Assembly: GCA_015065165.1 (NCBI GenBank)
Contig: SVQU01000001.1
Location: 36,632-100,631, forward strand
DNA length: 64,000 bases
Source: Oscillospiraceae bacterium
Lineage (GTDB): Bacteria; Bacillota; Clostridia; Oscillospirales; CAG-382
Reading direction: 5' to 3'
A model generated the notes under the pieces. That model did not search any database. It was not told where the DNA came from and saw nothing but the letters and a program-made list of their open reading frames with translations. Position 1 is the stretch's first letter. Each line of letters starts with the position of its first letter. Of the stretch, positions 578 to 45,616 are shown one piece after another. Position numbers and translations under genes: made by a program.

Positions 578-818
578 CAGAGCGAAGACAAATGGGTTAT
601 TTACGTCCTTGAAAGAATAAAAAAGACAAATAACGAGTTTCATTTTTAATATGAAGCTCGTTATTAATTTTATAAGGAATATTAATTTTTATTGTATTTT
701 CAAGGACTTTGAAGAAATGCTCGACTACCTTACCATTGTAAGCCTACGCTCGCATTTCTTCAAAACTAACCTCATTTCTCTCACTCTGCTTCAGTCTGTA
801 GACTTTGTCTACAGACTG

Positions 819-846
819 ACCCGCTTTCTACCGAAAGCGGGTTTTT
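819..846 (+). terminator. 24-nt hairpin repeat, copy 2, followed by a T-run (intrinsic terminator on the plus strand)
   Basis: Same 24 nt as 554-577, followed by TTTTT. Directly preceded by a 12-bp perfect hairpin at 792-818. Confidence 0.7.
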
Positions 847-901
847 GGTTATAGTTAATACATTGAAAAAATAATAGGTTTGATTGGATGTGTATAAAAA
901 A

Positions 902-928
902 ACAGCCATCACGTAATGTGGTGGCTGT
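902..928 (-). terminator. Intrinsic terminator of the ACP/FkbH/DHHW/MBOAT operon
   Basis: Stem ACAGCCA(T)/(G)TGGCTGT with an 11-nt loop. The A-run at 894-901 on the plus strand gives a U-run after the hairpin on the minus strand. Lies 30 nt past the stop at 959. Confidence 0.65.
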
Positions 929-958
929 TTTAATGAATATAGAATTTTGAAATTTATT

Positions 959-1198
959 TTAGCCTCTTTCGGCGATGATATCCATCATTTCGCCGACGTT
1001 TTTCATTGCGCTGACTTCTTTCATTGTGAATTTAACACCGAATTCACGTTCAACCGCACCGATGAGACGGATATGCTCGAGGCTATCCCAATCTTCAATA
1101 TCGTCGGCGGTAGTTTCGCGGTTTACTTCGATATCATCATCGTCGAAAACGTTTCTGAATACTTCGTTTAATCTTTCGTTGATATTCTGTTGTGCCAT
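959..1198 (-). CDS. Acyl/peptidyl carrier protein (PP-binding), DltC-like role proposed
   Basis: 79 aa, acidic, with a DSL phosphopantetheine-attachment motif (EDWDSLEHIRLIGAVEREF). Starts 2 nt after the FkbH-like gene. Confidence 0.8.
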   Translation of the reverse strand: MAQQNINERLNEVFRNVFDDDDIEVNRETTADDIEDWDSLEHIRLIGAVEREFGVKFTMKEVSAMKNVGEMMDIIAERG

Positions 1199-1200
1199 AT

Positions 1201-2988
1201 TTATTCCTCCGAGTTTACGTTTATAACGTGATTTTGATTTTTATAGTCTGTTACAGACAACGACCAGCCGGTGTTGCCGGATTCGTCCTCGCTTATTTTT
1301 GTGAACCCAAAATCCGAGAACAAATTTTTAACCATACCGTTTTTTGCGGTAGGGTAGTAATGACCGATAATTGTATTAATATCGCGTTTCTTACATTCGC
1401 TAACAAGAGTATCAAGCATAGCAAATTCCATATTTTTCTTTAATACTCTGCAACTCATTAACCAAAGGTCGATATCGCAGGTATTCCCTTTGATTTCGCC
1501 AATTACAACCGAAACAACGCCATTATCTCCGAATACATCACTTAACTTACCGTAAAGTGTAATATGGTTGCCATCGGACACGGTAGATTCTATTTCCTGT
1601 TGTGTATATCTCTTTGTGGTGAGATTGAACTGGTTGGATTTGTTGGTCAACTGTGTGATACGCGGAATATAAAGAGGGGAGAACTCTTTAATCTCACCTT
1701 TCATTTCAAGGCTCAACAAATATTCGTTATAGTCTGTAAAGGTTGCCGATTGTTCATTACGCAAAACGTTTGCTTTGTACATATCGTTGCGTTTTAAATC
1801 GTCCGCAGAAAAGTTTGTTACCTCAAAATAACCGTTTCTGTCGATGGTGCGTATATAGTCAATGGGCATGTCCATTTTTGGTACGGCAATTCCCGAAATG
1901 CTTTTTTCTACCAATGCGCGCTCGGTGGGGTTATCATCTGCAAAAACGAAGGAATCAATACCCAAATCCATTTCGTTTGCTGTCGCAACAAGATTTCTGT
2001 CTTTGGTTTCCCAGTTCGCCTTAATTACAATGAAATCTTCGGGTTTAAGCACACCGTCAGGATGGTTTAAGCCTGAAATTGCGTTTTCGTGGTCGTTTTT
2101 TGAAGCAACAGTAAGCATTATACCAATGCTTTTTTGTTTTTTTACGTATTCTTGGAAACCCTTAAAGCATTCGGCATTGGCAGTTTCTTCGCCGATTTCG
2201 ATTCCTTCCACACCGTCATCGCCCACAACACCGCCCCAAAGGGTATTATCCAAATCCAATGCCAAAACCTTTTTGTTCTTGCCAAACAGGGATTTAATAA
2301 TATGGGATAGATTGAACGCAACGTAGGGGATAGCATCAAGGCAGCAGGCATATTTATACATACACCAGGCCTGTTCATCGTGCCATCTGTCTAAACCGAA
2401 ACAAGAGGCAACGTAGTTCAAGTCGCAAATATAAAAGCCTTGATTTTCACGTGCATACTGTGAGAAACGGCGGTTAAGTTCGTTAATGAAATTAACACCG
2501 CCATGGATATCAGAAAAATCCTTATTGCCAAACAAACGGTAAGGGGGAAGCTCGAAATTGTTTTGGATAATAGGGCAATTATATACCGAGCTAAGCCTTT
2601 GCCACATTTTGACATAGTAATCATATCGTTCGTTTAGTTTGTTTTCAACCAACTGATATTCGTCGTTCGCTTCCGGAAGAAAAGATGAGATGTTTCTATA
2701 ACTTGTATGAATATATATTACATCGGGTTTGAATTCCGTCAATTCGGGATTATCAAACATTGCATCCTGCCAGAAGCGGTTATATTCCGATTCGTAAAAT
2801 ACAGGCTCTATGCCCTCGGAAAGAAGGAACAGCTCTAACGTTTTAATAATATCGGGAGTGGTAGAACCGCCCAAAACGGCAATATTCTTTTTTATTCTTT
2901 TGGTGCCGTCATTTAGAAGCTCGCGCTTTGTTCTTCTTCGATAATCTGTCAAAGCTGCAATATCAAACGGGTAATCGGTTCTTGCCAT
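1201..2988 (-). CDS. FkbH-like HAD-IIIC phosphatase/acyl-loading protein with GNAT-like C-terminal domain
   Basis: 595 aa. Contains the HAD-IIIC/FkbH block VLALDLDNTLWGGVVGDDGVEGIEIG. The C-terminal segment (GDNGVVSVVIG...WLMSCRVLKKNMEFAMLD...FGF) is GNAT-like. Confidence 0.75.
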   Translation of the reverse strand: MARTDYPFDIAALTDYRRRTKRELLNDGTKRIKKNIAVLGGSTTPDIIKTLELFLLSEGIEPVFYESEYNRFWQDAMFDNPELTEFKPDVIYIHTSYRNISSFLPEANDEYQLVENKLNERYDYYVKMWQRLSSVYNCPIIQNNFELPPYRLFGNKDFSDIHGGVNFINELNRRFSQYARENQGFYICDLNYVASCFGLDRWHDEQAWCMYKYACCLDAIPYVAFNLSHIIKSLFGKNKKVLALDLDNTLWGGVVGDDGVEGIEIGEETANAECFKGFQEYVKKQKSIGIMLTVASKNDHENAISGLNHPDGVLKPEDFIVIKANWETKDRNLVATANEMDLGIDSFVFADDNPTERALVEKSISGIAVPKMDMPIDYIRTIDRNGYFEVTNFSADDLKRNDMYKANVLRNEQSATFTDYNEYLLSLEMKGEIKEFSPLYIPRITQLTNKSNQFNLTTKRYTQQEIESTVSDGNHITLYGKLSDVFGDNGVVSVVIGEIKGNTCDIDLWLMSCRVLKKNMEFAMLDTLVSECKKRDINTIIGHYYPTAKNGMVKNLFSDFGFTKISEDESGNTGWSLSVTDYKNQNHVINVNSEE

Positions 2989-3003
2989 AATTGCTCCTTG
3001 ATT

Positions 3004-4425
3004 TTAATAATTGATTTTTAATCCTTTAAAGTTGCTAACACCGAATGCGGCGATAGAGAAGCATACGTCAGTAATGCCTTGCTCAGCGATAAAGTCGCTT
3101 ACGTCCGCTTGGAAATATCTATAGTCGGCAACGATGATTTCATCAAAGGAACCAACTAAGAAGGGAGCCAAAGCGTTTCCGTAGCTGTCTTTAAATACTA
3201 AAAGCTTTCTGCCGTTTCCTACATTGGTTTTGATATGTGTGGTATAGGAATCACCGTATAAAAACTTGGTATAACCATTGTTGGTAGAAAAGAGTGTTCT
3301 GCCGGTTATGGGATCTCCGCTATGGCCTGCGCGATTGTAGTATTCCACGGTATATTCACGTGTGGGCTCATACCAAACGATAGTATCGGGGTTATTTCCT
3401 AACACCGGGTCTTTTGTATATGTAGTGTAGAAGGAACCCAAAACACCATCTTCACTTTTTGTAGTAAAGGTGGATATGTTATCAAAAGAAACACCTGCAA
3501 CAGACGCTAGCTCTTCACAAGCATAGTACGCTGCCAATGCTTGCCAATGGTGGTCGGTGCGGAAATAAATTTCTTCATCAACGTGGGCGCTAATGGCGGA
3601 CAAAGTATCTACAAAACCAACGTTGTTTAAAGCGTCTCTCATACCGTAAAAACATTTTTTGTGGTTCGAAATTGATGCTTCGTATCCAACGGGCGCATAA
3701 AATGCAGAGGCTAAAGGTGCAGGCAATACGTAAACGTTTACGTCGCCCATTTCTTCCTTAAAGCCGTTAAGTATATTTGCGGTTTTTTCGCCGCCTGTAG
3801 CAGAGCCGTAGAACTGTTCCATTGCTCTTGTACCGCTTATGAGAACGTTATTCACAATGCGAATGTCGGTTTCTTCGGGAGGCGTAATTTCAGCAGAATA
3901 CTTTTTGATTTTTACGTTTGCTATGCTTTCGGAACGAGAAATTATCGAAATACCGTCGGGTGCAGTGTAATCGATAACACATTGTATCGTACCGCTTTCG
4001 TTAAGATTGGAAACGTCAACCTTTGCGGTGATATCTTTGGCGGTGATATCACTTAGTATGGAATTATATCCTTCCAGCGTTACCGACACCGACATCGAAA
4101 AATCACCGTCAAGCTTAAATCCGTTAGACTTCAATTGGCTTTCGCCGTTTAATACAACGGAAATTCCGTCTATGGTCTTTTGAATAATAGCATCCGATTC
4201 ACTTTGAGAAGTATTGTTATTTTCTTCGGATGATTCTTGAGAGTTGTTGGAAGAAAAATCTTCGGATGAATTAGGTTCGGATGAATTGGGTTTTGGAGAA
4301 TTGGGTTCAGAAGAAGCGGTCTTGGAGGATGAATCGATATTACTGCTTGATTCTGACGTTGTATCGCAAGCGATGGTGGAAATGCACATTGCGAAAATCA
4401 TTAGAAGTAAAAGAAATTTTTTCAT
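3004..4425 (-). CDS. DHHW-family (AlgJ/AlgX-like SGNH-type) extracytoplasmic lipoprotein with YbbR-like domain
   Basis: Signal peptide plus lipobox (MCISTIAC), then a Ser/Pro/Glu-rich linker and a YbbR-like beta segment (VSVTLEG...VDVSNLNESGTIQCVIDYTAPDGISI). Catalytic motifs are YFRTDHHW and KDSYGNALAPF. Confidence 0.75.
   Translation of the reverse strand: MKKFLLLLMIFAMCISTIACDTTSESSSNIDSSSKTASSEPNSPKPNSSEPNSSEDFSSNNSQESSEENNNTSQSESDAIIQKTIDGISVVLNGESQLKSNGFKLDGDFSMSVSVTLEGYNSILSDITAKDITAKVDVSNLNESGTIQCVIDYTAPDGISIISRSESIANVKIKKYSAEITPPEETDIRIVNNVLISGTRAMEQFYGSATGGEKTANILNGFKEEMGDVNVYVLPAPLASAFYAPVGYEASISNHKKCFYGMRDALNNVGFVDTLSAISAHVDEEIYFRTDHHWQALAAYYACEELASVAGVSFDNISTFTTKSEDGVLGSFYTTYTKDPVLGNNPDTIVWYEPTREYTVEYYNRAGHSGDPITGRTLFSTNNGYTKFLYGDSYTTHIKTNVGNGRKLLVFKDSYGNALAPFLVGSFDEIIVADYRYFQADVSDFIAEQGITDVCFSIAAFGVSNFKGLKINY
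4261..4305. repeat. 15-bp imperfect in-frame tandem repeat (3 copies) in the linker of the DHHW lipoprotein
   Basis: TTCGGATGAATTAGG / TTCGGATGAATTGGG / TTTTGGAGAATTGGG. Encodes PNS(S/P)(E/K) repeats on the minus strand. Confidence 0.8.
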
Positions 4426-5880
4426 TTAACTACAAAGCTCCTCTAAATAGTTTAAATATTTGCCTACGGCAGAAAAAGTGCATTCCGCAAACAGAACGTC
4501 TGTTATACCGAATTGCTCAATGGTGTCATTTAATGAAACTGTATATTCTCGGCAATCGACAATATAAATTTCTTCGAATCCCTTCATTAAAAACGGCGCT
4601 AAAGCGTTGCCGTAGCTGTCTTTAACAATCAAAAGCTTTCTGCCGTTTTTGCAATCTTTAGATACTGCTTTTACAGCATAGCTATCACCGCGGATGAAAG
4701 TTGAATACCAACTGCTTCTCTGGTTATCGCCGATATCCCAAAAGAAGCCGTTATAGTCGGGAATACCATCGTGGTCTTTATCAAAGGTCAAGGGATTTTC
4801 ATTAAAGCTTTCTTTTGAATAGTAATATACGTCATATTCGGTATCGGGATAGTATACAGTGAAGTTCTCGGGGTTATTCAGTATTTTAGAGTTGTAATCG
4901 GAATATTTATACATAACGCCGATATATCCTTCGCGTTGTACTTTGGTATATTCCGAAAGGGGGTCAAAGGCGATGCCTGCCTTTTCGGCGAATACTTGCG
5001 CGCCGTAATATGCGCCTAATGCCGACCAGTGCGTGTCGGTTCGAAAATAAATTTCTTCATCTGCATGTATACCCAGTGTGTTATATATATTGACGTCAAT
5101 TACTTTTTCCGACAAATTATTTGATATTGTGTCTATATCTCGTTTGTTACGATATATATATCCTTCGTATCCTTTTGCCTGTTCCACGTAATAAGCGCTG
5201 GCTTTTGGAATAACCATTGAGTAAACGTTTACGCTATTGTTAAGCTTGTCCGCAAATTCGTTTAAAATTTTAGCATATCGTTCTGCACCCGAAGTACTTC
5301 CGCCGTAAAGCTCGATAGCACGTGTACCTACAATTAAAATCGAGCCTGACATTTCGGGGTTTACGTCTCCTTCCGGCTCATCCATTGGTTCGGAAGAAGA
5401 AGTATCCGATTCATCACTTTCGATGGGCGTTGAAGACTCTTCCTCGGAAGAAACTATTGAAGATTCCGAATAATCAGAAATATCAGAAATATCAGAAATA
5501 TCAGAAATATCAGAAGTAACGTCTATTATTGCGCTTGATTCATTTGGGATAGCTTCGCTTGCAATACTATTATCAGCTTCATCATCCGATTCTTCATAAA
5601 CAACGTAAAGTTGTTCGTCATCCTTGATACCGTATAAATCGTTGATTTTGGTTTCGAAATCGATAAATCTATCACGGGAATTTATGGTATCGGTAAAGCA
5701 GTACACTACATCCTTTAGATATTCACCGGAGAAAAACGTTTCAAAGGAAAATTCTGGCCATTCCTTTAAAACGCTATAATCCGAAACCTCTGTACGGGGT
5801 AAAAATACAGAGAAAACAAACATAAAGAGAAATACCGCAACAAAGACGGATACACATAATATTGTTGTAAACTTCTTCAT
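4426..5880 (-). CDS. DHHW-family (AlgJ/AlgX-like) protein with N-terminal membrane anchor
   Basis: N-terminal TM helix (ILCVSVFVAVFLFMFVFSVFL) and an acidic Ser-rich linker. Motifs are YFRTDTHW and KDSYGNALAPF. Paralogue of 3004-4425; its stop abuts the next start. Confidence 0.75.
   Translation of the reverse strand: MKKFTTILCVSVFVAVFLFMFVFSVFLPRTEVSDYSVLKEWPEFSFETFFSGEYLKDVVYCFTDTINSRDRFIDFETKINDLYGIKDDEQLYVVYEESDDEADNSIASEAIPNESSAIIDVTSDISDISDISDISDYSESSIVSSEEESSTPIESDESDTSSSEPMDEPEGDVNPEMSGSILIVGTRAIELYGGSTSGAERYAKILNEFADKLNNSVNVYSMVIPKASAYYVEQAKGYEGYIYRNKRDIDTISNNLSEKVIDVNIYNTLGIHADEEIYFRTDTHWSALGAYYGAQVFAEKAGIAFDPLSEYTKVQREGYIGVMYKYSDYNSKILNNPENFTVYYPDTEYDVYYYSKESFNENPLTFDKDHDGIPDYNGFFWDIGDNQRSSWYSTFIRGDSYAVKAVSKDCKNGRKLLIVKDSYGNALAPFLMKGFEEIYIVDCREYTVSLNDTIEQFGITDVLFAECTFSAVGKYLNYLEELCS
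5473..5517. repeat. 9-bp in-frame microsatellite (ATCAGAAAT, 4 perfect copies plus 1 imperfect)
   Basis: Read directly from the sequence. Encodes (SDI)n, seen as SDISDISDISDISD in the linker of the protein at 4426-5880. Confidence 0.9.
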
Positions 5881-5890
5881 TCAAATTCTC

Positions 5891-7303
5891 CTAAAAGTTC
5901 CAATACAAGAAAGGGTTGTTGCTGCTAAAGGTTTTAACCAATACAGCAGTATTAATAAACAAAAGTAAAATTAAGAAAGCCGTTGTACAAACCATAGCAA
6001 GTGATGCTACGAATGGGTGCGATGCTTCGAAACGGCGTTTAAAGAATTCCGCGATAGGGAAGCAAGCAACAAGTGCAATTGCAAAAATGAAAATGTGAGA
6101 TTTCAGGTTAGAAAAAGTTTCCGTATTTGCGAAAATATTGCCGTTTGCGCCAACTAAATTCTTAAAGAAATTTCCAAGCTCTGATATGTTCTCAAATTTG
6201 AATATACCAAAGCCAATAAGGATAACCAGCTTGTTATATATGTGCATTAAAAGAGTTGGGGCATTTTTTAATCTCTTTTTTCCGATTTTTGTTTCTATAA
6301 AAATAAACACACCGAAATAAAGACCCCAAATTACATAGTTCCAGCTTGCACCGTGCCAAAGTCCGGTTGTGAACCAAACCAAAAACAGCGAGAGAACAGC
6401 GCGACGCTTGCCGAAAATAGGTACGTATAGAAGGTAATCCCTAAAGAAACTACCCAACGAAATGTGCCATCTTTGCCAAAACTCGGATATTGAACGGCAC
6501 ATAAAGGGATGTCTGAAGTTTTCATCAAAATGAAATCCGAAAATTCTGCCAATACCTATAGCCATATCGGAGTAACCCGAAAAGTCAAAATAAACCTGCA
6601 TTGCATAAGCAATTACGCCTATCCAGGTTGCAACAACTGTGGCATCACTAATGTTTTCACCAAAGCAATTGTTAACGATAGTGTTTAAATTATTCGCAAG
6701 GAGAACTTTTTTTGAAAGCCCGATTATTAATCGTGTGAAACCGTCAATTACATCGTAAATCGTGGTACGACGGTTATCAATTTCTTCGGCTACTGTTTGA
6801 TAACGAACAATGGGCCCTGCAACCAACTGAGGAAATAGCGAAATATATAACAAAAGCTTATGGAATTTCTTTTGAACAGGAACCTTCTCCCAATATACAT
6901 CAATCACGTACGAAACGATTTGGAAGGTATAAAAGCTAATACCAAGCGGTAAAGCAATGTTTTGTGCAGGGATATGAGAACCGAAAATTGCATTAACGTT
7001 GCTTATCATAAAGTCGGTATACTTAAATACACCAAGCATACCGAAATTATACAGTAAGCATATAGTTAAAACAGCCTTACAAATCTTTTTACCTCTGGTA
7101 GAATCTATCCAGCGGGCAAGCAGATAATTAAGTAAGGCACTGCCCACAAAAAGGAAAATCTTAAGCGGTTCTCCATAAGCGTAAAAAATCAATGAAGTTA
7201 TTATGAGAACTGCATTTTTTGCGTTTATATTTTTGAATAAAAAGTATGCAGCAAAGCATATCGGAAGAAAAGCATAAAGAAAATATAAATCTGCGAATAA
7301 CAT
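5891..7303 (-). CDS. MBOAT-family membrane O-acyltransferase (AlgI/DltB/PatA type)
   Basis: 470 aa, polytopic. Signature blocks are LPLGISFYTFQ, FPQLVAGPI, YFDFSGYSDMAIG, EFWQRWHISL and LWHGASW (conserved His). Confidence 0.9.
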   Translation of the reverse strand: MLFADLYFLYAFLPICFAAYFLFKNINAKNAVLIITSLIFYAYGEPLKIFLFVGSALLNYLLARWIDSTRGKKICKAVLTICLLYNFGMLGVFKYTDFMISNVNAIFGSHIPAQNIALPLGISFYTFQIVSYVIDVYWEKVPVQKKFHKLLLYISLFPQLVAGPIVRYQTVAEEIDNRRTTIYDVIDGFTRLIIGLSKKVLLANNLNTIVNNCFGENISDATVVATWIGVIAYAMQVYFDFSGYSDMAIGIGRIFGFHFDENFRHPFMCRSISEFWQRWHISLGSFFRDYLLYVPIFGKRRAVLSLFLVWFTTGLWHGASWNYVIWGLYFGVFIFIETKIGKKRLKNAPTLLMHIYNKLVILIGFGIFKFENISELGNFFKNLVGANGNIFANTETFSNLKSHIFIFAIALVACFPIAEFFKRRFEASHPFVASLAMVCTTAFLILLLFINTAVLVKTFSSNNPFLYWNF

Positions 7304-7330
7304 ATAATTCCCCTAAAAGTTTATCAATAA

Positions 7331-7359
7331 ATTATACCACGCAGACAATATTAAGTCAA
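7331..7359 (-). promoter_or_regulatory. Sigma-A type promoter of the MBOAT operon
   Basis: Minus-strand TTGACT-17 nt-TATAAT with an extended TGg, about 25 nt upstream of RBS AGGGGA and the ATG at 7303. Confidence 0.6.
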
Positions 7360-8246: not shown

Positions 8247-8275
8247 TTGACTATGTTGATTTTTTGTGGTATAAT
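8247..8275 (+). promoter_or_regulatory. Sigma-A type promoter for 8304-8810
   Basis: TTGACT-17 nt-TATAAT with an extended TGg. Confidence 0.55.
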
Positions 8276-8303: not shown

Positions 8304-8810
8304 ATGTTAAAATTCAAAAGCGATAAATCTGTTGAAGAACTTATAAAACAGTGGGATGAGCATACTTCTATTTCACGTTTTGCGGGCAGTGATGAAACTA
8401 TGGATTTGATTTATGTTTCAAAACGCAAAGGACGAAAGGTAAGACTTGTGAGAAAAGCTCCTTTGGCACGCGAGCCTTTTTCATCCGTATTTAGAGGTGT
8501 GATTCGTGAAGCTGAGCAGGGAAGTGAGATAGCGGGATTATTTACAAAATCTATTTTTGATTATGTATTAATTTCCGCAATATTCTTTATGTTGTTTTAC
8601 ATACGCTCGTACGTTATTCAGCGCGGCGACAGTCTTGCAACAATAAATACACTGATAATATTCGCTATAATAGGCTCTGTTTTGTGTCTGTATAATTTCC
8701 GCGCCACAAAGCGCAAATATGCCGATTTTATATCCGGAATAACCGGAAAAGAAACTAATTTGTTTTTGAAAAAATCCGAAATCAAAGACAAAGACGGCTC
8801 GGATAATTAA
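8304..8810 (+). CDS. Hypothetical membrane protein
   Basis: 168 aa. Soluble N-terminal part followed by two predicted TM helices. I recognise no family. Confidence 0.55.
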   Translation: MLKFKSDKSVEELIKQWDEHTSISRFAGSDETMDLIYVSKRKGRKVRLVRKAPLAREPFSSVFRGVIREAEQGSEIAGLFTKSIFDYVLISAIFFMLFYIRSYVIQRGDSLATINTLIIFAIIGSVLCLYNFRATKRKYADFISGITGKETNLFLKKSEIKDKDGSDN

Positions 8811-12101: not shown

Positions 12102-14015
12102 TTATTCATCGTAAGACGATATTATTTCTTCAAGTTTTTCCAACTCGGCATATAGATTATCTATCTTTGCCTCACATTCGGTTTCTTGTCTGTAGATTTC
12201 ATCAAGTGCCACGTAATCGCTTATAATGCTTTCGTCGGTTGATTTACTTCTTAATTCAGCCAATTGGTTTTCAAGGTCGGAAATTTCTTTTTCTGCTTTT
12301 TCATACCGCGTTTTTGCAGAACGGTATTGATTTTTACGTTGCTTTGCTTCTTCAAAATCGGCTTTTCCGGCACCGCTAATCTGTTTGCTTACAACCGTTT
12401 CTTTTTTTGTACACTTTTCAATATAATCTTCGTAGGTGCAGTGCTTCCAATTATATCCCGAATCGAAACCGTCTTTGTCAATTTCAAGTATAGCGGTTGC
12501 AAGGTTTTTTATAAAATATCGGTCGTGGGAAACGGTTATTATAGTTCCGTCATATTCATTTAATGCTGATTCCAGCATTTCACGGGAATCAATGTCCAAG
12601 TGGTTCGTCGGTTCGTCAAGAATTAACAGACTGACACCGCAAGCGACCATTTTCGCGATAGATAAACGCGCTCTTTCGCCACCGCTTAAAACCGAAACGC
12701 TTTTAAATACGTCATCGCCGCGAAATCCGAAGGATGCCAGCATAGCGCGGATTTCGGTGTTTGTCTTGTCTGAATAAACGTTCCAAAGCTCATCAATAAC
12801 GGTGCTGTTTTGGTCTAAAAGCTGTTGTTCTTGGTCGTAATAACCGATTGTTTGGTTATAACCTAATTCAAAAACACCGCCGATTTGCTTTTCTCTGCCT
12901 GTTAAAATCTTTATAAGGGTAGATTTACCGCAACCGTTTTTACCTATAATAAAAAGATGTTCACCGCGTTTGATTTCAAAAGAGAGGTTTTCAAACAAAG
13001 GTTTGTTAGGGTAACTCATAGACAAATTACGTACAGACAGCACGTCGTTACTCATAGCACCCGAATGAGAAATTGAAAACTTTATACCTTTTTCTTTTTC
13101 CTTGGGTTTTTCTAACTTGACCATTTTGTCAATGGTTTTTTGACGGCTTTCGGCGGCAATAATGTTTTTCTCACGGTTCCATTTTCTTTGGTTTTCTATA
13201 AAAGCCTCTAAACGTGCGATTTCCTTTTGTTGCAGGTTGTAGTGCTTAAGCTTTGCTTCGTCCAAGGCTTTTTTCTTTTCACGGAAGGTGGTGTAGTTAC
13301 CATCGTACATTTCGGAAACACCGTGTGATATTTCTAAGGTTTTATTTGTTATTTTATCAAGAAAATATCTGTCGTGAGAGATTATTAAAAAGGTTTTTTT
13401 AGAAGAAATAATATAATTTTCAAGCCATTCGCAGGTTTTATAATCCAAATGGTTGGTCGGCTCGTCCAAAAGCATAATGTCGGGTTCGGAAAGCAAAAGC
13501 TTTACAAGTAAAAGCTTTGTTTTTTGACCGCCGCTTAGTTCATCGGCACTTTTGGTTAAATCCGATTCTTCAAAACCGAATTTGGCAAGCATCGATTTTG
13601 TCTTACTTCGACATTCATTTCCGCCGAGTAAATTAAATCTTTCGGTATTGTCGGAAAATGCTTTGATTACCGATTCATCCCCGGCTTCGATTCTAATTCT
13701 TAAATCGTTGATTTCGTTTTCGAGCTTGATAAGTTTATCAAAAGCCGAAAGTGCTGTTTCATATATGTTACAATTAAATCTGTGTGCATCGTTTATCTGT
13801 TCAAGACAGCCTATTTCGGCGTCCGCGGTTATGTACACGTCGCCCTTTGACGCTTCCAACAAACCTCGTATAACCGCAAAAAGAGTAGATTTACCTGCAC
13901 CATTAACGCCGATAACACCTACTTTGTCGCCTTCGTTTACCGAAAAATCTATTTTATCTAAAATAACATCTGCGCCGTATGATACTGAAACGCCATCACA
14001 GACAATTATGCTCAT
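12102..14015 (-). CDS. ABC-F family ATPase (two ABC domains plus C-terminal coiled coil)
   Basis: 637 aa. Two Walker A sites (GVNGAGKST, GKNGCGKST), two signatures (LSGGQKTK, LSGGERARL), no TM domain, Lys/Glu-rich tail. Confidence 0.85.
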   Translation of the reverse strand: MSIIVCDGVSVSYGADVILDKIDFSVNEGDKVGVIGVNGAGKSTLFAVIRGLLEASKGDVYITADAEIGCLEQINDAHRFNCNIYETALSAFDKLIKLENEINDLRIRIEAGDESVIKAFSDNTERFNLLGGNECRSKTKSMLAKFGFEESDLTKSADELSGGQKTKLLLVKLLLSEPDIMLLDEPTNHLDYKTCEWLENYIISSKKTFLIISHDRYFLDKITNKTLEISHGVSEMYDGNYTTFREKKKALDEAKLKHYNLQQKEIARLEAFIENQRKWNREKNIIAAESRQKTIDKMVKLEKPKEKEKGIKFSISHSGAMSNDVLSVRNLSMSYPNKPLFENLSFEIKRGEHLFIIGKNGCGKSTLIKILTGREKQIGGVFELGYNQTIGYYDQEQQLLDQNSTVIDELWNVYSDKTNTEIRAMLASFGFRGDDVFKSVSVLSGGERARLSIAKMVACGVSLLILDEPTNHLDIDSREMLESALNEYDGTIITVSHDRYFIKNLATAILEIDKDGFDSGYNWKHCTYEDYIEKCTKKETVVSKQISGAGKADFEEAKQRKNQYRSAKTRYEKAEKEISDLENQLAELRSKSTDESIISDYVALDEIYRQETECEAKIDNLYAELEKLEEIISSYDE

Positions 14016-42838: not shown

Positions 42839-42914
42839 GATCCATTAGCTCAGCCGGTAGAGCACATGACTTTTAATCATGGTGTCCGGAGTTCGATTCT
42901 CCGATGGATCACCA
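42839..42914 (+). tRNA. tRNA-Lys (anticodon UUU)
   Basis: Manual cloverleaf fold. Acceptor GATCCAT/ATGGATC, D-arm GCTC/GAGC, anticodon stem CATGA/TCATG with loop CTTTTAA, T-arm CGGAG-TTCGATT-CTCCG, encoded CCA. Confidence 0.85.
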
Positions 42915-45137: not shown

Positions 45138-45549
45138 ATTGTATTCAAAGGCTGCGCTTATCACAAAGGCTGTGTTTTGCGTATGCCTTTCTCCTCTTTA
45201 TATGTTATTATCAGCCTTATTAACGATAGAAGACGGATTTTTGTATTTGGTTTTTTCTATTGTTCCCGTTGTTTGCCTATATACAATTCCGTTTTGGATA
45301 ACGTTGATTTTTATAAAAAAATATCCCGTGGTTAAAATAGGGAAGTATGCACTTTTTGATTGTTTGTGTTGCTTTGCGCCTGCAGTGCTTGGTATGGTTT
45401 TGGCAGACGTTGCATATACTGTTGCGTGGGGTGCCACAAATGTTTCTGGAATAATGACATTAATATTTGTTGTGATATATTTAATTATCACTTTGGTGTT
45501 TGTTTTATTGTATTTTCTTTTTTCGTATAAATTAAAGAGCCGCCCTTAG
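45130..45549 (+). CDS. Hypothetical 4-TM membrane protein
   Basis: 139 aa. Its start overlaps the stop of the acyl-CoA synthetase. Its last 10 nt overlap the 5' end of tRNA-Arg. Confidence 0.5.
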   Translation: MDKLYSKAALITKAVFCVCLSPLYMLLSALLTIEDGFLYLVFSIVPVVCLYTIPFWITLIFIKKYPVVKIGKYALFDCLCCFAPAVLGMVLADVAYTVAWGATNVSGIMTLIFVVIYLIITLVFVLLYFLFSYKLKSRP

Positions 45550-45616
45550 CTCAGCTGGATAGAGTAACGCATTCCGATTGCGTTGGTCGAGGGTTCGAAT
45601 CCCCCAGGGCGGGCCA
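45540..45616 (+). tRNA. tRNA-Arg (anticodon CCG)
   Basis: Manual fold. Acceptor CCGCCCT/AGGGCGG, D-arm GCTC/GAGT, anticodon stem ACGCA/TGCGT with loop TTCCGAT, T-arm GAGGG-TTCGAAT-CCCCC (one A-C mismatch), discriminator G, encoded CCA. Confidence 0.8.

Follow-up and report, generated by a model that had tools for sequence, protein, structure and literature searches.

A candidate carrier-fed envelope acylation operon that joins an FkbH-family loader and acyl carrier protein to an MBOAT-DHHW acyltransferase system in an Oscillospiraceae bacterium

The stretch of DNA analysed here (the window: 64,000 nucleotides of contig SVQU01000001.1, assembly GCA_015065165.1, positions 36,632 to 100,631 of the forward strand) comes from an Oscillospiraceae bacterium and carries near its start five tightly packed genes, all on the minus strand (7303-959 in the open reading frame (ORF) calls). 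In operon order, these genes encode an MBOAT membrane acyltransferase, two DHHW ecto-proteins (DHHW1 and DHHW2), an FkbH-family loader, and an acyl carrier protein (ACP). The operon appears to specify a self-contained pathway, wherein a small acyl group would be built on a cytoplasmic carrier and then esterified onto an extracytoplasmic envelope glycopolymer. The gene order, the family membership of the products, the intact catalytic motifs, and the conserved synteny are observed directly, and they suggest a mechanism in which glyceryl-S-ACP donates its acyl group to a Tyr side chain of the MBOAT, from which it would move to a DHHW Ser and finally to a wall glycopolymer; we place the probability of this complete mechanism at roughly 0.55. 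The chances are about even that the operon represents the first carrier-fed MBOAT-SGNH acylation outside the Dlt pathway, placing a glyceryl ester on a wall polymer, with pyruvoyl or lactyl as the corresponding group in sister cassettes that include a dehydratase and a reductase.

We infer the acyl group, the hand-off from ACP to MBOAT, the hand-off from MBOAT to DHHW protein, and the acceptor, and the proposed sequence of steps is as follows. First, the loader would take 1,3-bisphosphoglycerate, the HAD domain would remove the 3-phosphate, and Cys513 in the GNAT-fold domain would hold the glyceryl group. Next, glyceryl would pass from Cys513 onto the phosphopantetheine arm that the operon ACP bears at Ser39; the conversion of 1,3-bisphosphoglycerate to glyceryl-S-ACP is established chemistry for the FkbH family. 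Glyceryl-S-ACP would then dock at the cytoplasmic face of the MBOAT, and His317-assisted transfer across the membrane would place the acyl group on Tyr467 of the sequence FLYWNF, a step that combines the donor logic of Dlt with the acyl-Tyr mechanism of PatA. Finally, the membrane-anchored DHHW1 would accept the acyl group on Ser422 and pass it to a sugar hydroxyl of the wall polymer, and the lipoprotein DHHW2, with its YbbR domain, would act as a second AlgX-like transferase or as a polymer-binding partner. The parts of this proposal differ in strength: it is likely that the ACP feeds the MBOAT relay, glyceryl is somewhat favored as the group carried, and, given the relay, an envelope glycopolymer is very likely to be the acceptor.

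The initial annotation described five same-strand genes with intergenic gaps of 10, 0, 15, and 2 nt, and the ORF coordinates agree exactly. The genes encode the 470-residue MBOAT (5891-7303), the 484-residue DHHW1 (4426-5880), its 473-residue paralogue DHHW2 (3004-4425), the 595-residue loader (1201-2988), and the 79-residue dedicated ACP (959-1198). The family assignments originally given to all five products are supported by Pfam, NCBIfam, and structure matches, and each of the motifs quoted for them is present in the translations. The near-consensus sigma-70-type promoter reported at 7331-7359 (minus strand; TTGACT-17-TG-n-TATAAT) was recovered in a consensus scan with 11 of 12 consensus matches plus the extended -10 TG, a score of 11/12 that just one other site in the first 9 kb reaches. 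Only this top-scoring site counts, because weaker promoter-like matches in the same 9 kb are no commoner than in shuffled sequence (29 observed, 27.4 expected). A ribosome-binding site (AGGGG, 7310-7314, minus strand) lies 6 nt 5' of the MBOAT ATG. The operon ends at an intrinsic terminator (893-931, minus strand) made up of a 10+3 bp hairpin and a T-run. A consensus terminator scan gave no match at the operon end; the hairpin was found from the sequence and from RNA folding, which upholds the hairpin plus U-run proposed earlier (931-899 plus T-run, -16.8 kcal/mol, z -6.4, 0/200 shuffles as stable). Rfam gave no regulatory RNA within the operon, and both the upstream BrkB-family gene and the convergent 3' end of typA/bipA lie outside the transcription unit. 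Based on the ORFs and Pfam, the operon contains no further acyltransferase, ketosynthase, or glycosyltransferase able to use acyl-ACP. The carrier-fed relay is favored because the operon is compact, has its own promoter and terminator, and encodes no other user of acyl-ACP.

The loader matches the FkbH domain model TIGR01686 with 259.7 bits (cut-off 146.65; model positions 3-320 of 323) and the HAD-IIIC NCBIfam model with 60.1 bits (cut-off 35.75), and its N-terminus matches Pfam FkbH_N with 44.9 bits. None of the five operon products matches the AMP-binding family (Pfam, NCBIfam). These results agree with the earlier proposal that an FkbH-like enzyme stands in place of an adenylating loader. 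Residues up to ~395 match PDB entry 3SLR (BF1531; N-terminal and HAD phosphatase domains; E 5.7e-49), the title of which names a phosphatase domain, in keeping with a glyceryl product. In the AlphaFold model (mean predicted local distance difference test score, pLDDT, of 85), the C-terminus resembles many GNAT acetyltransferases, consistent with the GNAT-like C-terminus that had been ascribed to this protein. The HAD-IIIC phosphatase motifs are D245-L-D247-N-T249, S296-K-N, and D351-D352 (DDNP), and the C-terminal GNAT-fold domain carries Cys513 (SCRV; codon 1452-1450), presumably the acyl-enzyme residue as in OzmB. The side chains D245, D247, T249, S296-K-N, D351-D352, and C513 are invariant across 59 loader homologues. 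Furthermore, DxDxT, SKN, DDxP, and the SCR Cys are identical in the FkbH of a Streptomyces plasmid cluster (KASIII-FkbH-ACP-phosphopantetheinyl transferase), and this identity supports the glyceryl reading. The loader thus has the score over the curated cut-off, the intact motifs and Cys, and the neighboring stand-alone ACP of an FkbH-family enzyme.

It is rather improbable, yet worth weighing, that the same relay carries a different cargo, such as 3-phosphoglyceryl (should the HAD domain fail to act on substrate once it is bound), lactyl, pyruvoyl, acetyl derived from acetyl phosphate, or a group from another acyl phosphate. The substrate of this loader clade is a deduced one, the loader is only 28% identical to the Streptomyces tetronate-type FkbH and has an extra N-terminal domain, and CoA thioesters are the usual ligands of the GNAT fold. 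Against these considerations stand the invariance of all the HAD phosphatase motifs and of the family Cys, an FkbH score well over the curated cut-off, and the confinement of dehydratase and reductase genes to the sister cassettes described below, which suggests that the group transferred by the DHHW-type cassette is unmodified.

Several features of the loader family are recorded here as separate observations. Residues 1-235 of the loader (FkbH_N) are modeled as an alternating strand-helix fold. Within this region, S42-T43 is invariant in a GGST block, the glycines of which are nearly invariant, as is H94, an arrangement that recalls SGNH block I. The FkbH_N domain is also found in the Streptomyces tetronate-type homologue. 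FkbH-like genes with ~34% identity also occur widely among plasmids, including megaplasmids (e.g., Sinorhizobium meliloti pSymB, NC_003078.1 631223-632589), with ~40 records from Sinorhizobium, 52 from Bacillus, 15 from Ralstonia, and 13 from Clostridium; many of these plasmid matches have no gene listed beneath them in the plasmid table.

The carrier gene starts 2 nt past the loader stop. Its product matches Pfam PP-binding with 24.3 bits, and the predicted phosphopantetheine site is Ser39 within WDSLEH (codon 1084-1082). The ACP scores under every NCBIfam cut-off for the ACPs of fatty acid synthesis, and its nearest solved relative is 2LML, a 'putative acyl carrier protein' (E 8e-18). DltC is absent from its best 60 PDB matches. 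As judged by these comparisons, the carrier is a syntenic PP-binding protein with a DSL serine that does not appear to be DltC-like.

The MBOAT matches Pfam MBOAT with 80.6 bits. It reaches 150.2 bits against the DltB model TIGR04091 (LTA_dltB), which is below the cut-off of 375 and indicates that it is not a DltB equivalog. The protein nevertheless aligns, WHG block included, to the DltB structures 6BUG and 8JEM, and this alignment identifies the conserved catalytic His as His317 (LWHGASW; codon 6355-6353). At its C-terminus, the MBOAT has FLYWNF (residues 465-470, with Tyr467 at codon 5905-5903), which fits the acyl-shuttle motif FxYxxF, and 72 of 73 MBOATs from related loci end in the same way. 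The FxYxxF hexapeptide functions as an acyl shuttle in which the Tyr is acylated and hands the group to an SGNH partner; it is located on the microprotein DltX in Dlt and is fused to the MBOAT C-terminus in PatA and other non-Dlt MBOATs, and the acyl-Tyr shuttle has been demonstrated for PatA with acetyl-CoA as the donor (PMC12148441). No separate DltX microprotein was found in the operon, and the MBOAT itself has the Tyr motif fused to its end. The MBOAT consequently looks to be of the PatA/AlgI type, with no need of DltX.

Both ecto-proteins match the Pfam DHHW and ALGX models instead of DltD. DHHW1 (191.1 bits against DHHW, cut-off 25) is predicted from Pfam and PDB matches to be a DHHW/AlgX-type SGNH-like ecto-acyltransferase. 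It begins with a membrane anchor (residues 1-32) and a Ser/Asp-rich linker, and its catalytic region contains D282-x-H284, Ser422 (KDS), and D442-x-R444, with the D-x-R-x-Y block kept. In place of the family signature DHHW, this protein has DTHW, such that the first His is replaced and the Asp and second His are retained. The closest structure is 4NZK (E 2.4e-66). The protein in that structure, EUBSIR_00411 of E. siraeum, was not among the matches retrieved, the nearest of which is 45% identical. DHHW1 is also distantly related to Bacillus cereus PatB1 (5V8D/5V8E). DHHW2 (115.4 bits against DHHW, same cut-off) additionally matches YbbR; it has a lipoprotein signal peptide (…ISTIAC), a Ser/Pro-rich linker, a YbbR domain at residues 98-166, and the side chains D291-H-H293, Ser414, and D434-x-R436. 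Membership of both proteins in the DHHW family (PF14286) is indicated by score and by the D-x-H-W, KDS, and D-x-R motifs. Each protein therefore has the makings of an exported SGNH-like partner, with a putative Ser nucleophile and an Asp/His pair. DHHW2, with its lipoprotein signal and YbbR domain, is a lineage accessory, as most related cassettes have a single membrane-anchored DHHW protein; a lipoprotein-type second copy like that in the window is found in six related loci plus L081. The linkers between anchor and catalytic domain are acidic or Ser-rich and of low complexity (DISDISDISDISDYS… in DHHW1 and SSEPNSPKPNSSEPNSSE… in DHHW2).

The association of these genes has also been probed across related genomes. 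The loader subfamily is encoded in at least 599 stretches of species-representative genomes, mostly from gut and rumen Clostridia, and synteny was assessed in the best 80 of these. The 80 loci come almost entirely from Clostridia metagenome-assembled genomes (MAGs) of Oscillospiraceae, Ruminococcus, Acutalibacteraceae, and Lachnospiraceae, with one cultured strain, Eisenbergiella tayi DSM 26961. An ACP gene is located within 5 kb downstream of the loader in 74 of the 80 loci and is directly adjacent in 68. An MBOAT gene lies within 10 kb of the loader in 65 of the 80 loci (38 of the 45 that have at least 6 kb on both sides), at a median distance of 1.6 kb. A DHHW gene is immediately 5' of the loader in 37 loci, and the complete MBOAT-DHHW-FkbH-ACP order is present in 33. 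DHHW homologues that are 47% identical occupy the same five-gene cassette, one beside shikimate-pathway genes and the other beside BrkB/BipA as in the window; the same cassette amid unrelated neighbors indicates that it travels as a unit. A lack of synteny would have spoken against the initial annotation, and the survey found the opposite, with FkbH-like and ACP genes co-occurring with MBOAT and DHHW genes in many species and in several chromosomal contexts.

Four loci with DHHW genes lack an MBOAT, and two of these are on contigs that end early. The other two, L044 (7120-12005) and L050 (7040-11770) from Ruminiclostridium MAGs, are truly without an MBOAT within 10 kb; in both, a peptidyl-tRNA hydrolase gene is followed by two DHHW genes, an FkbH-like gene, and an ACP gene (located by tblastn in L050). 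Either the MBOAT is encoded elsewhere in these genomes or the acyl group reaches the DHHW proteins by some other route.

Additional insight comes from sister cassettes that lack DHHW genes. Lachnospiraceae and others encode, 3' of the loader-ACP pair, an MBOAT that is more distantly related (30-35% identity) and that also has the FxYxxF end. Other candidate ecto-partners are encoded in 23 DHHW-less loci, either a GDSL_2 SGNH protein or a membrane-anchored protein of 373 residues. Because the loader-ACP pair is joined to distant MBOATs with varied candidate partners, the link appears to follow the MBOAT relay and not one protein. The ~373-residue protein is encoded 3' of the MBOAT in L029 (13968-15089), L047, L063, and L071, has homologues in eight further sister loci, and is without a match among Pfam, NCBIfam, or PDB sequences. 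An SGNH/DltD-like label was considered for this protein and set aside, as only GGS and DxxH motifs were seen by eye. A different membrane protein, multi-pass and of ~510 residues, is encoded directly 3' of the ACP in seven Lachnospiraceae loci (L027 at 12206-13735, L016, L038, L041, L059, L066, and L073); it has no Pfam or NCBIfam match, and a GDSL-type SGNH gene is located just 5' of the loader in the same loci. The locus of the cultured E. tayi DSM 26961 (L074, 6560-17316) contains, in order, genes for GT2, YdjC, DUF6056, FkbH, ACP, MBOAT, DUF6056, GT2, and a GDSL_2 SGNH protein, with a second MBOAT on the opposite strand. The GT2, YdjC, and DUF6056 membrane proteins place this cassette in what looks to be an envelope-glycan context.

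The sister cassettes also bear on the identity of the acyl group. In 13 sister loci, a MaoC/HadB-like (3R)-hydroxyacyl dehydratase is encoded beside the ACP, frequently accompanied by an SDR or aldo-keto reductase, and within the 80-locus set this addition never occurs in DHHW-type loci. Such dehydratase-extended cassettes, which include L029 (9998-15089), L043 (1463-5920), and L085 (8935-12406), occur both with and without an MBOAT. A dehydratase and a reductase acting on the ACP thioester make sense if the thioester is a 3-hydroxyacyl group such as glyceryl (2,3-dihydroxypropanoyl). This arrangement suggests that glyceryl-ACP is dehydrated to pyruvoyl and reduced to lactyl in the sister cassettes, and the loading module of bryostatin biosynthesis provides a parallel. 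The dehydratase and reductase genes consequently support the view that the loader primarily makes glyceryl and that the window cassette, which has no tailoring genes, would transfer this group.

A number of observations weigh against this proposal. The 80 loci represent the loader's nearest relatives (53-81% identity), and the rate of co-occurrence is that of this set. An MBOAT was not found near the loader in 15 of the 80 loci, some of which are on short contigs, and five of these MBOAT-less loci are flanked by a full 10 kb to either side, two being DHHW-DHHW-FkbH-ACP. FkbH-ACP with a dehydratase and an SDR is also encoded with no MBOAT in the DNA examined in a Bacteroides MAG locus, where a GT4 is present, and on a Subdoligranulum variabile plasmid, where the ORFs 3' of the cassette belong to no informative families. 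A fused FxYxxF tail characterizes MBOATs that are thought to take acyl-CoA, such that the MBOAT in the window could use acetyl-CoA and ignore the ACP. Finally, the wider neighbors of the operon are housekeeping genes (HAD hydrolase, cytidylate-kinase-like protein, ABC ATPases, a MurE-like Mur ligase, and DapF), and no polymer-synthesis genes were found near it, a context that gives no pointer to the acceptor polymer.

The main alternative is that the operon contains two independent modules. The MBOAT and DHHW proteins would then form an acetyl-CoA-dependent O-acetyltransferase of the PatA1/PatB1 or CcsH/CcsI type, and the FkbH-like protein and ACP would give glyceryl or lactyl to a separate cytoplasmic step on the same polymer, the two modules being co-transcribed through their shared target. 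The fused FxYxxF motif has been described for MBOATs that use acyl-CoA, B. cereus has MBOAT and DHHW proteins that function without a carrier, as has been proposed for those of clostridial cellulose loci, and FkbH-ACP cassettes do exist with no MBOAT nearby. However, the operon provides no other acyltransferase, ketosynthase, or glycosyltransferase to consume acyl-ACP, the cassette shifts intact from one chromosomal setting to another, unrelated one, and the MBOAT pairing recurs with different candidate ecto-partners, a recurrence hardly to be expected of an MBOAT with no use for the ACP. On balance, this two-part arrangement is considered unlikely, although it is the more credible of the alternatives to the carrier-fed relay.

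How the proposed relay compares to known systems depends on whether working logic or descent is considered. The initial annotation called the operon 'Dlt-like', and this description holds for the working logic of carrier, MBOAT, and ecto-enzyme. It does not hold for descent, given the fused FxYxxF, the DltB score of 150 versus 375 bits, and the carrier that is not DltC-like. As in the Dlt pathway, an acyl thioester on a small dedicated carrier would be transferred to an MBOAT, to the acyl-Tyr within FxYxxF, to an ecto-enzyme of the SGNH type, and to a wall polymer (Dlt mechanism, PMC12148441). In contrast to Dlt, the loader is an FkbH-family HAD/GNAT enzyme and not the adenylating DltA, the MBOAT, and not DltX, carries the Tyr motif as a fused part, the ecto-enzyme is of the DHHW/AlgX type and not DltD, and the group transferred is probably glyceryl and not D-alanyl. 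Consistent with this, no DltA loader, DltB equivalog, separate DltX, or DltD ecto-enzyme was identified among the operon products. The operon is not regarded as a Dlt derivative because the MBOAT has the fused PatA/AlgI-type FxYxxF and the carrier is not DltC-like.

By membership, the operon appears to belong to the PatA/AlgI-type MBOAT-SGNH acyltransferases, specifically the MBOAT-DHHW pairs, as it has the catalytic His, the fused FxYxxF, and the exported SGNH-like partner of this O-acyltransferase class. PatA1/PatB1, which carries out O-acetylation of the secondary cell-wall polysaccharide in B. cereus, likewise pairs a fused-FxYxxF MBOAT with a DHHW-family partner; DHHW1 aligns to the PatB1 structures with the Ser, Asp/His, and Asp-x-Arg motifs conserved. 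The same pairing of a fused-FxYxxF MBOAT and a DHHW-family ecto-acyltransferase is found in CcsH/CcsI, which is proposed to produce clostridial acetyl-cellulose. These two systems transfer acetyl and have neither carrier nor loader, whereas the window operon encodes both. Similar to the AlgI/AlgJ/AlgF/AlgX system, the operon combines one MBOAT with two SGNH-like proteins, both of which match the ALGX model; AlgJ is described as membrane-anchored and AlgX as soluble with a carbohydrate-binding module (PMC4148444). Unlike the operon described here, alginate O-acetylation involves no carrier or loader and is encoded inside a polymer-synthesis operon; the second copy in the window is a YbbR lipoprotein with no polymer genes nearby. 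The non-Dlt MBOAT/SGNH pathways are said to use acyl-CoA and to have no carrier protein, only Dlt being carrier-fed (PMC12148441); the lack of a carrier agrees with what the initial annotation stated for AlgI/Pat-type systems. The carrier-free pattern of the PatA/AlgI class does not extend to this operon, where a dedicated ACP and loader are co-operonic and conserved and would take the place of an acyl-CoA donor. The operon is best described, from the sequence comparisons, as a hybrid in which a PatA/AlgI-type MBOAT and DHHW partner are combined with a Dlt-style carrier that has its own loader, with Dlt as its nearest relative in working logic.

The loader-ACP half of this hybrid resembles the FkbH/OzmB/tetronate 'glycerate utilisation' loaders in its HAD and GNAT-fold core, its catalytic motifs, and the ACP gene next door. 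In the polyketide pathways, glyceryl-ACP goes to ketosynthase-type enzymes, dehydrogenases, or methyltransferases, whereas here the only candidate recipients are the MBOAT and exported SGNH-like transferases. It could be argued that the operon is instead a small secondary-metabolite cluster (e.g., for a tetronate or butenolide) with no envelope role, as the FkbH literature is nearly all on polyketides and FkbH plus ACP is the core of 'glycerate utilisation' in tetronate clusters. The loader and ACP are, however, accompanied by an MBOAT and by two exported transferases of an SGNH-like family with a known part in polysaccharide O-acylation, and no ketosynthase, FabH-like enzyme, polyketide synthase, or nonribosomal peptide synthetase gene is present in the operon or its flanks; this reading was rejected on those grounds and is given very little weight. 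FkbH-ACP modules have until now been tied to polyketide pathways. The other cases met are BF1531 of Bacteroides fragilis (3SLR), which is FkbH-like, and cj1302 of Campylobacter jejuni, an fkbH-domain gene in a flagellar glycosylation locus, both outside polyketide clusters; in the literature searched, no MBOAT/SGNH partner was found reported for either, the gene neighborhoods being uninspected.

The combination of MBOAT, FkbH, and ACP was not found described in the literature searched, which excludes most subscription journals and in which absence is no proof; the earlier statement that no characterized example is known stands within that scope. If the carrier-fed relay is correct, the operon would break the division in which only Dlt is carrier-fed and the other MBOAT-SGNH relays are fed by acyl-CoA (PMC12148441), and fused-Tyr MBOATs would be able to accept acyl-ACP donors. 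It would also mean that a glycolytic intermediate is turned directly into a glycerate ester, an envelope substituent of a chemically new sort, and would point to an unrecognized class of envelope decoration in the gut microbiota. MBOAT-SGNH relays govern the acetylation and D-alanylation of the envelope, with effects on resistance to lysozyme, cationic peptides, and phage and on host recognition. Oscillospiraceae, Ruminococcus, and Lachnospiraceae from the guts of humans and animals commonly carry the cassette, which may affect the surface chemistry, immunogenicity, and phage susceptibility of abundant commensals. The system is tractable, with five genes, a mass-spectrometry read-out, a solved DHHW homologue (4NZK), and a variant cassette in the cultured E. 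tayi DSM 26961.

The surroundings of the operon offer a few further observations. Strong terminator hairpins at 818-843 (plus strand) and 893-931 (minus strand) lie opposite one another in the 400 nt that separate the 3' end of typA/bipA from the ACP gene, which indicates that the convergent transcription units are cleanly insulated. The second promoter-like site in the first 9 kb to combine 11/12 matches with an extended -10 is at 8247-8275 (plus strand), in the short gap beside the start of the divergent BrkB-family gene and just 5' of a 168-residue ORF (8304-8810) that matches no Pfam family. The sole Rfam/ARAGORN matches in the 64-kb window are tRNA-Lys(UUU) at 42839-42914 and tRNA-Arg(CCG) at 45540-45616, both on the plus strand.

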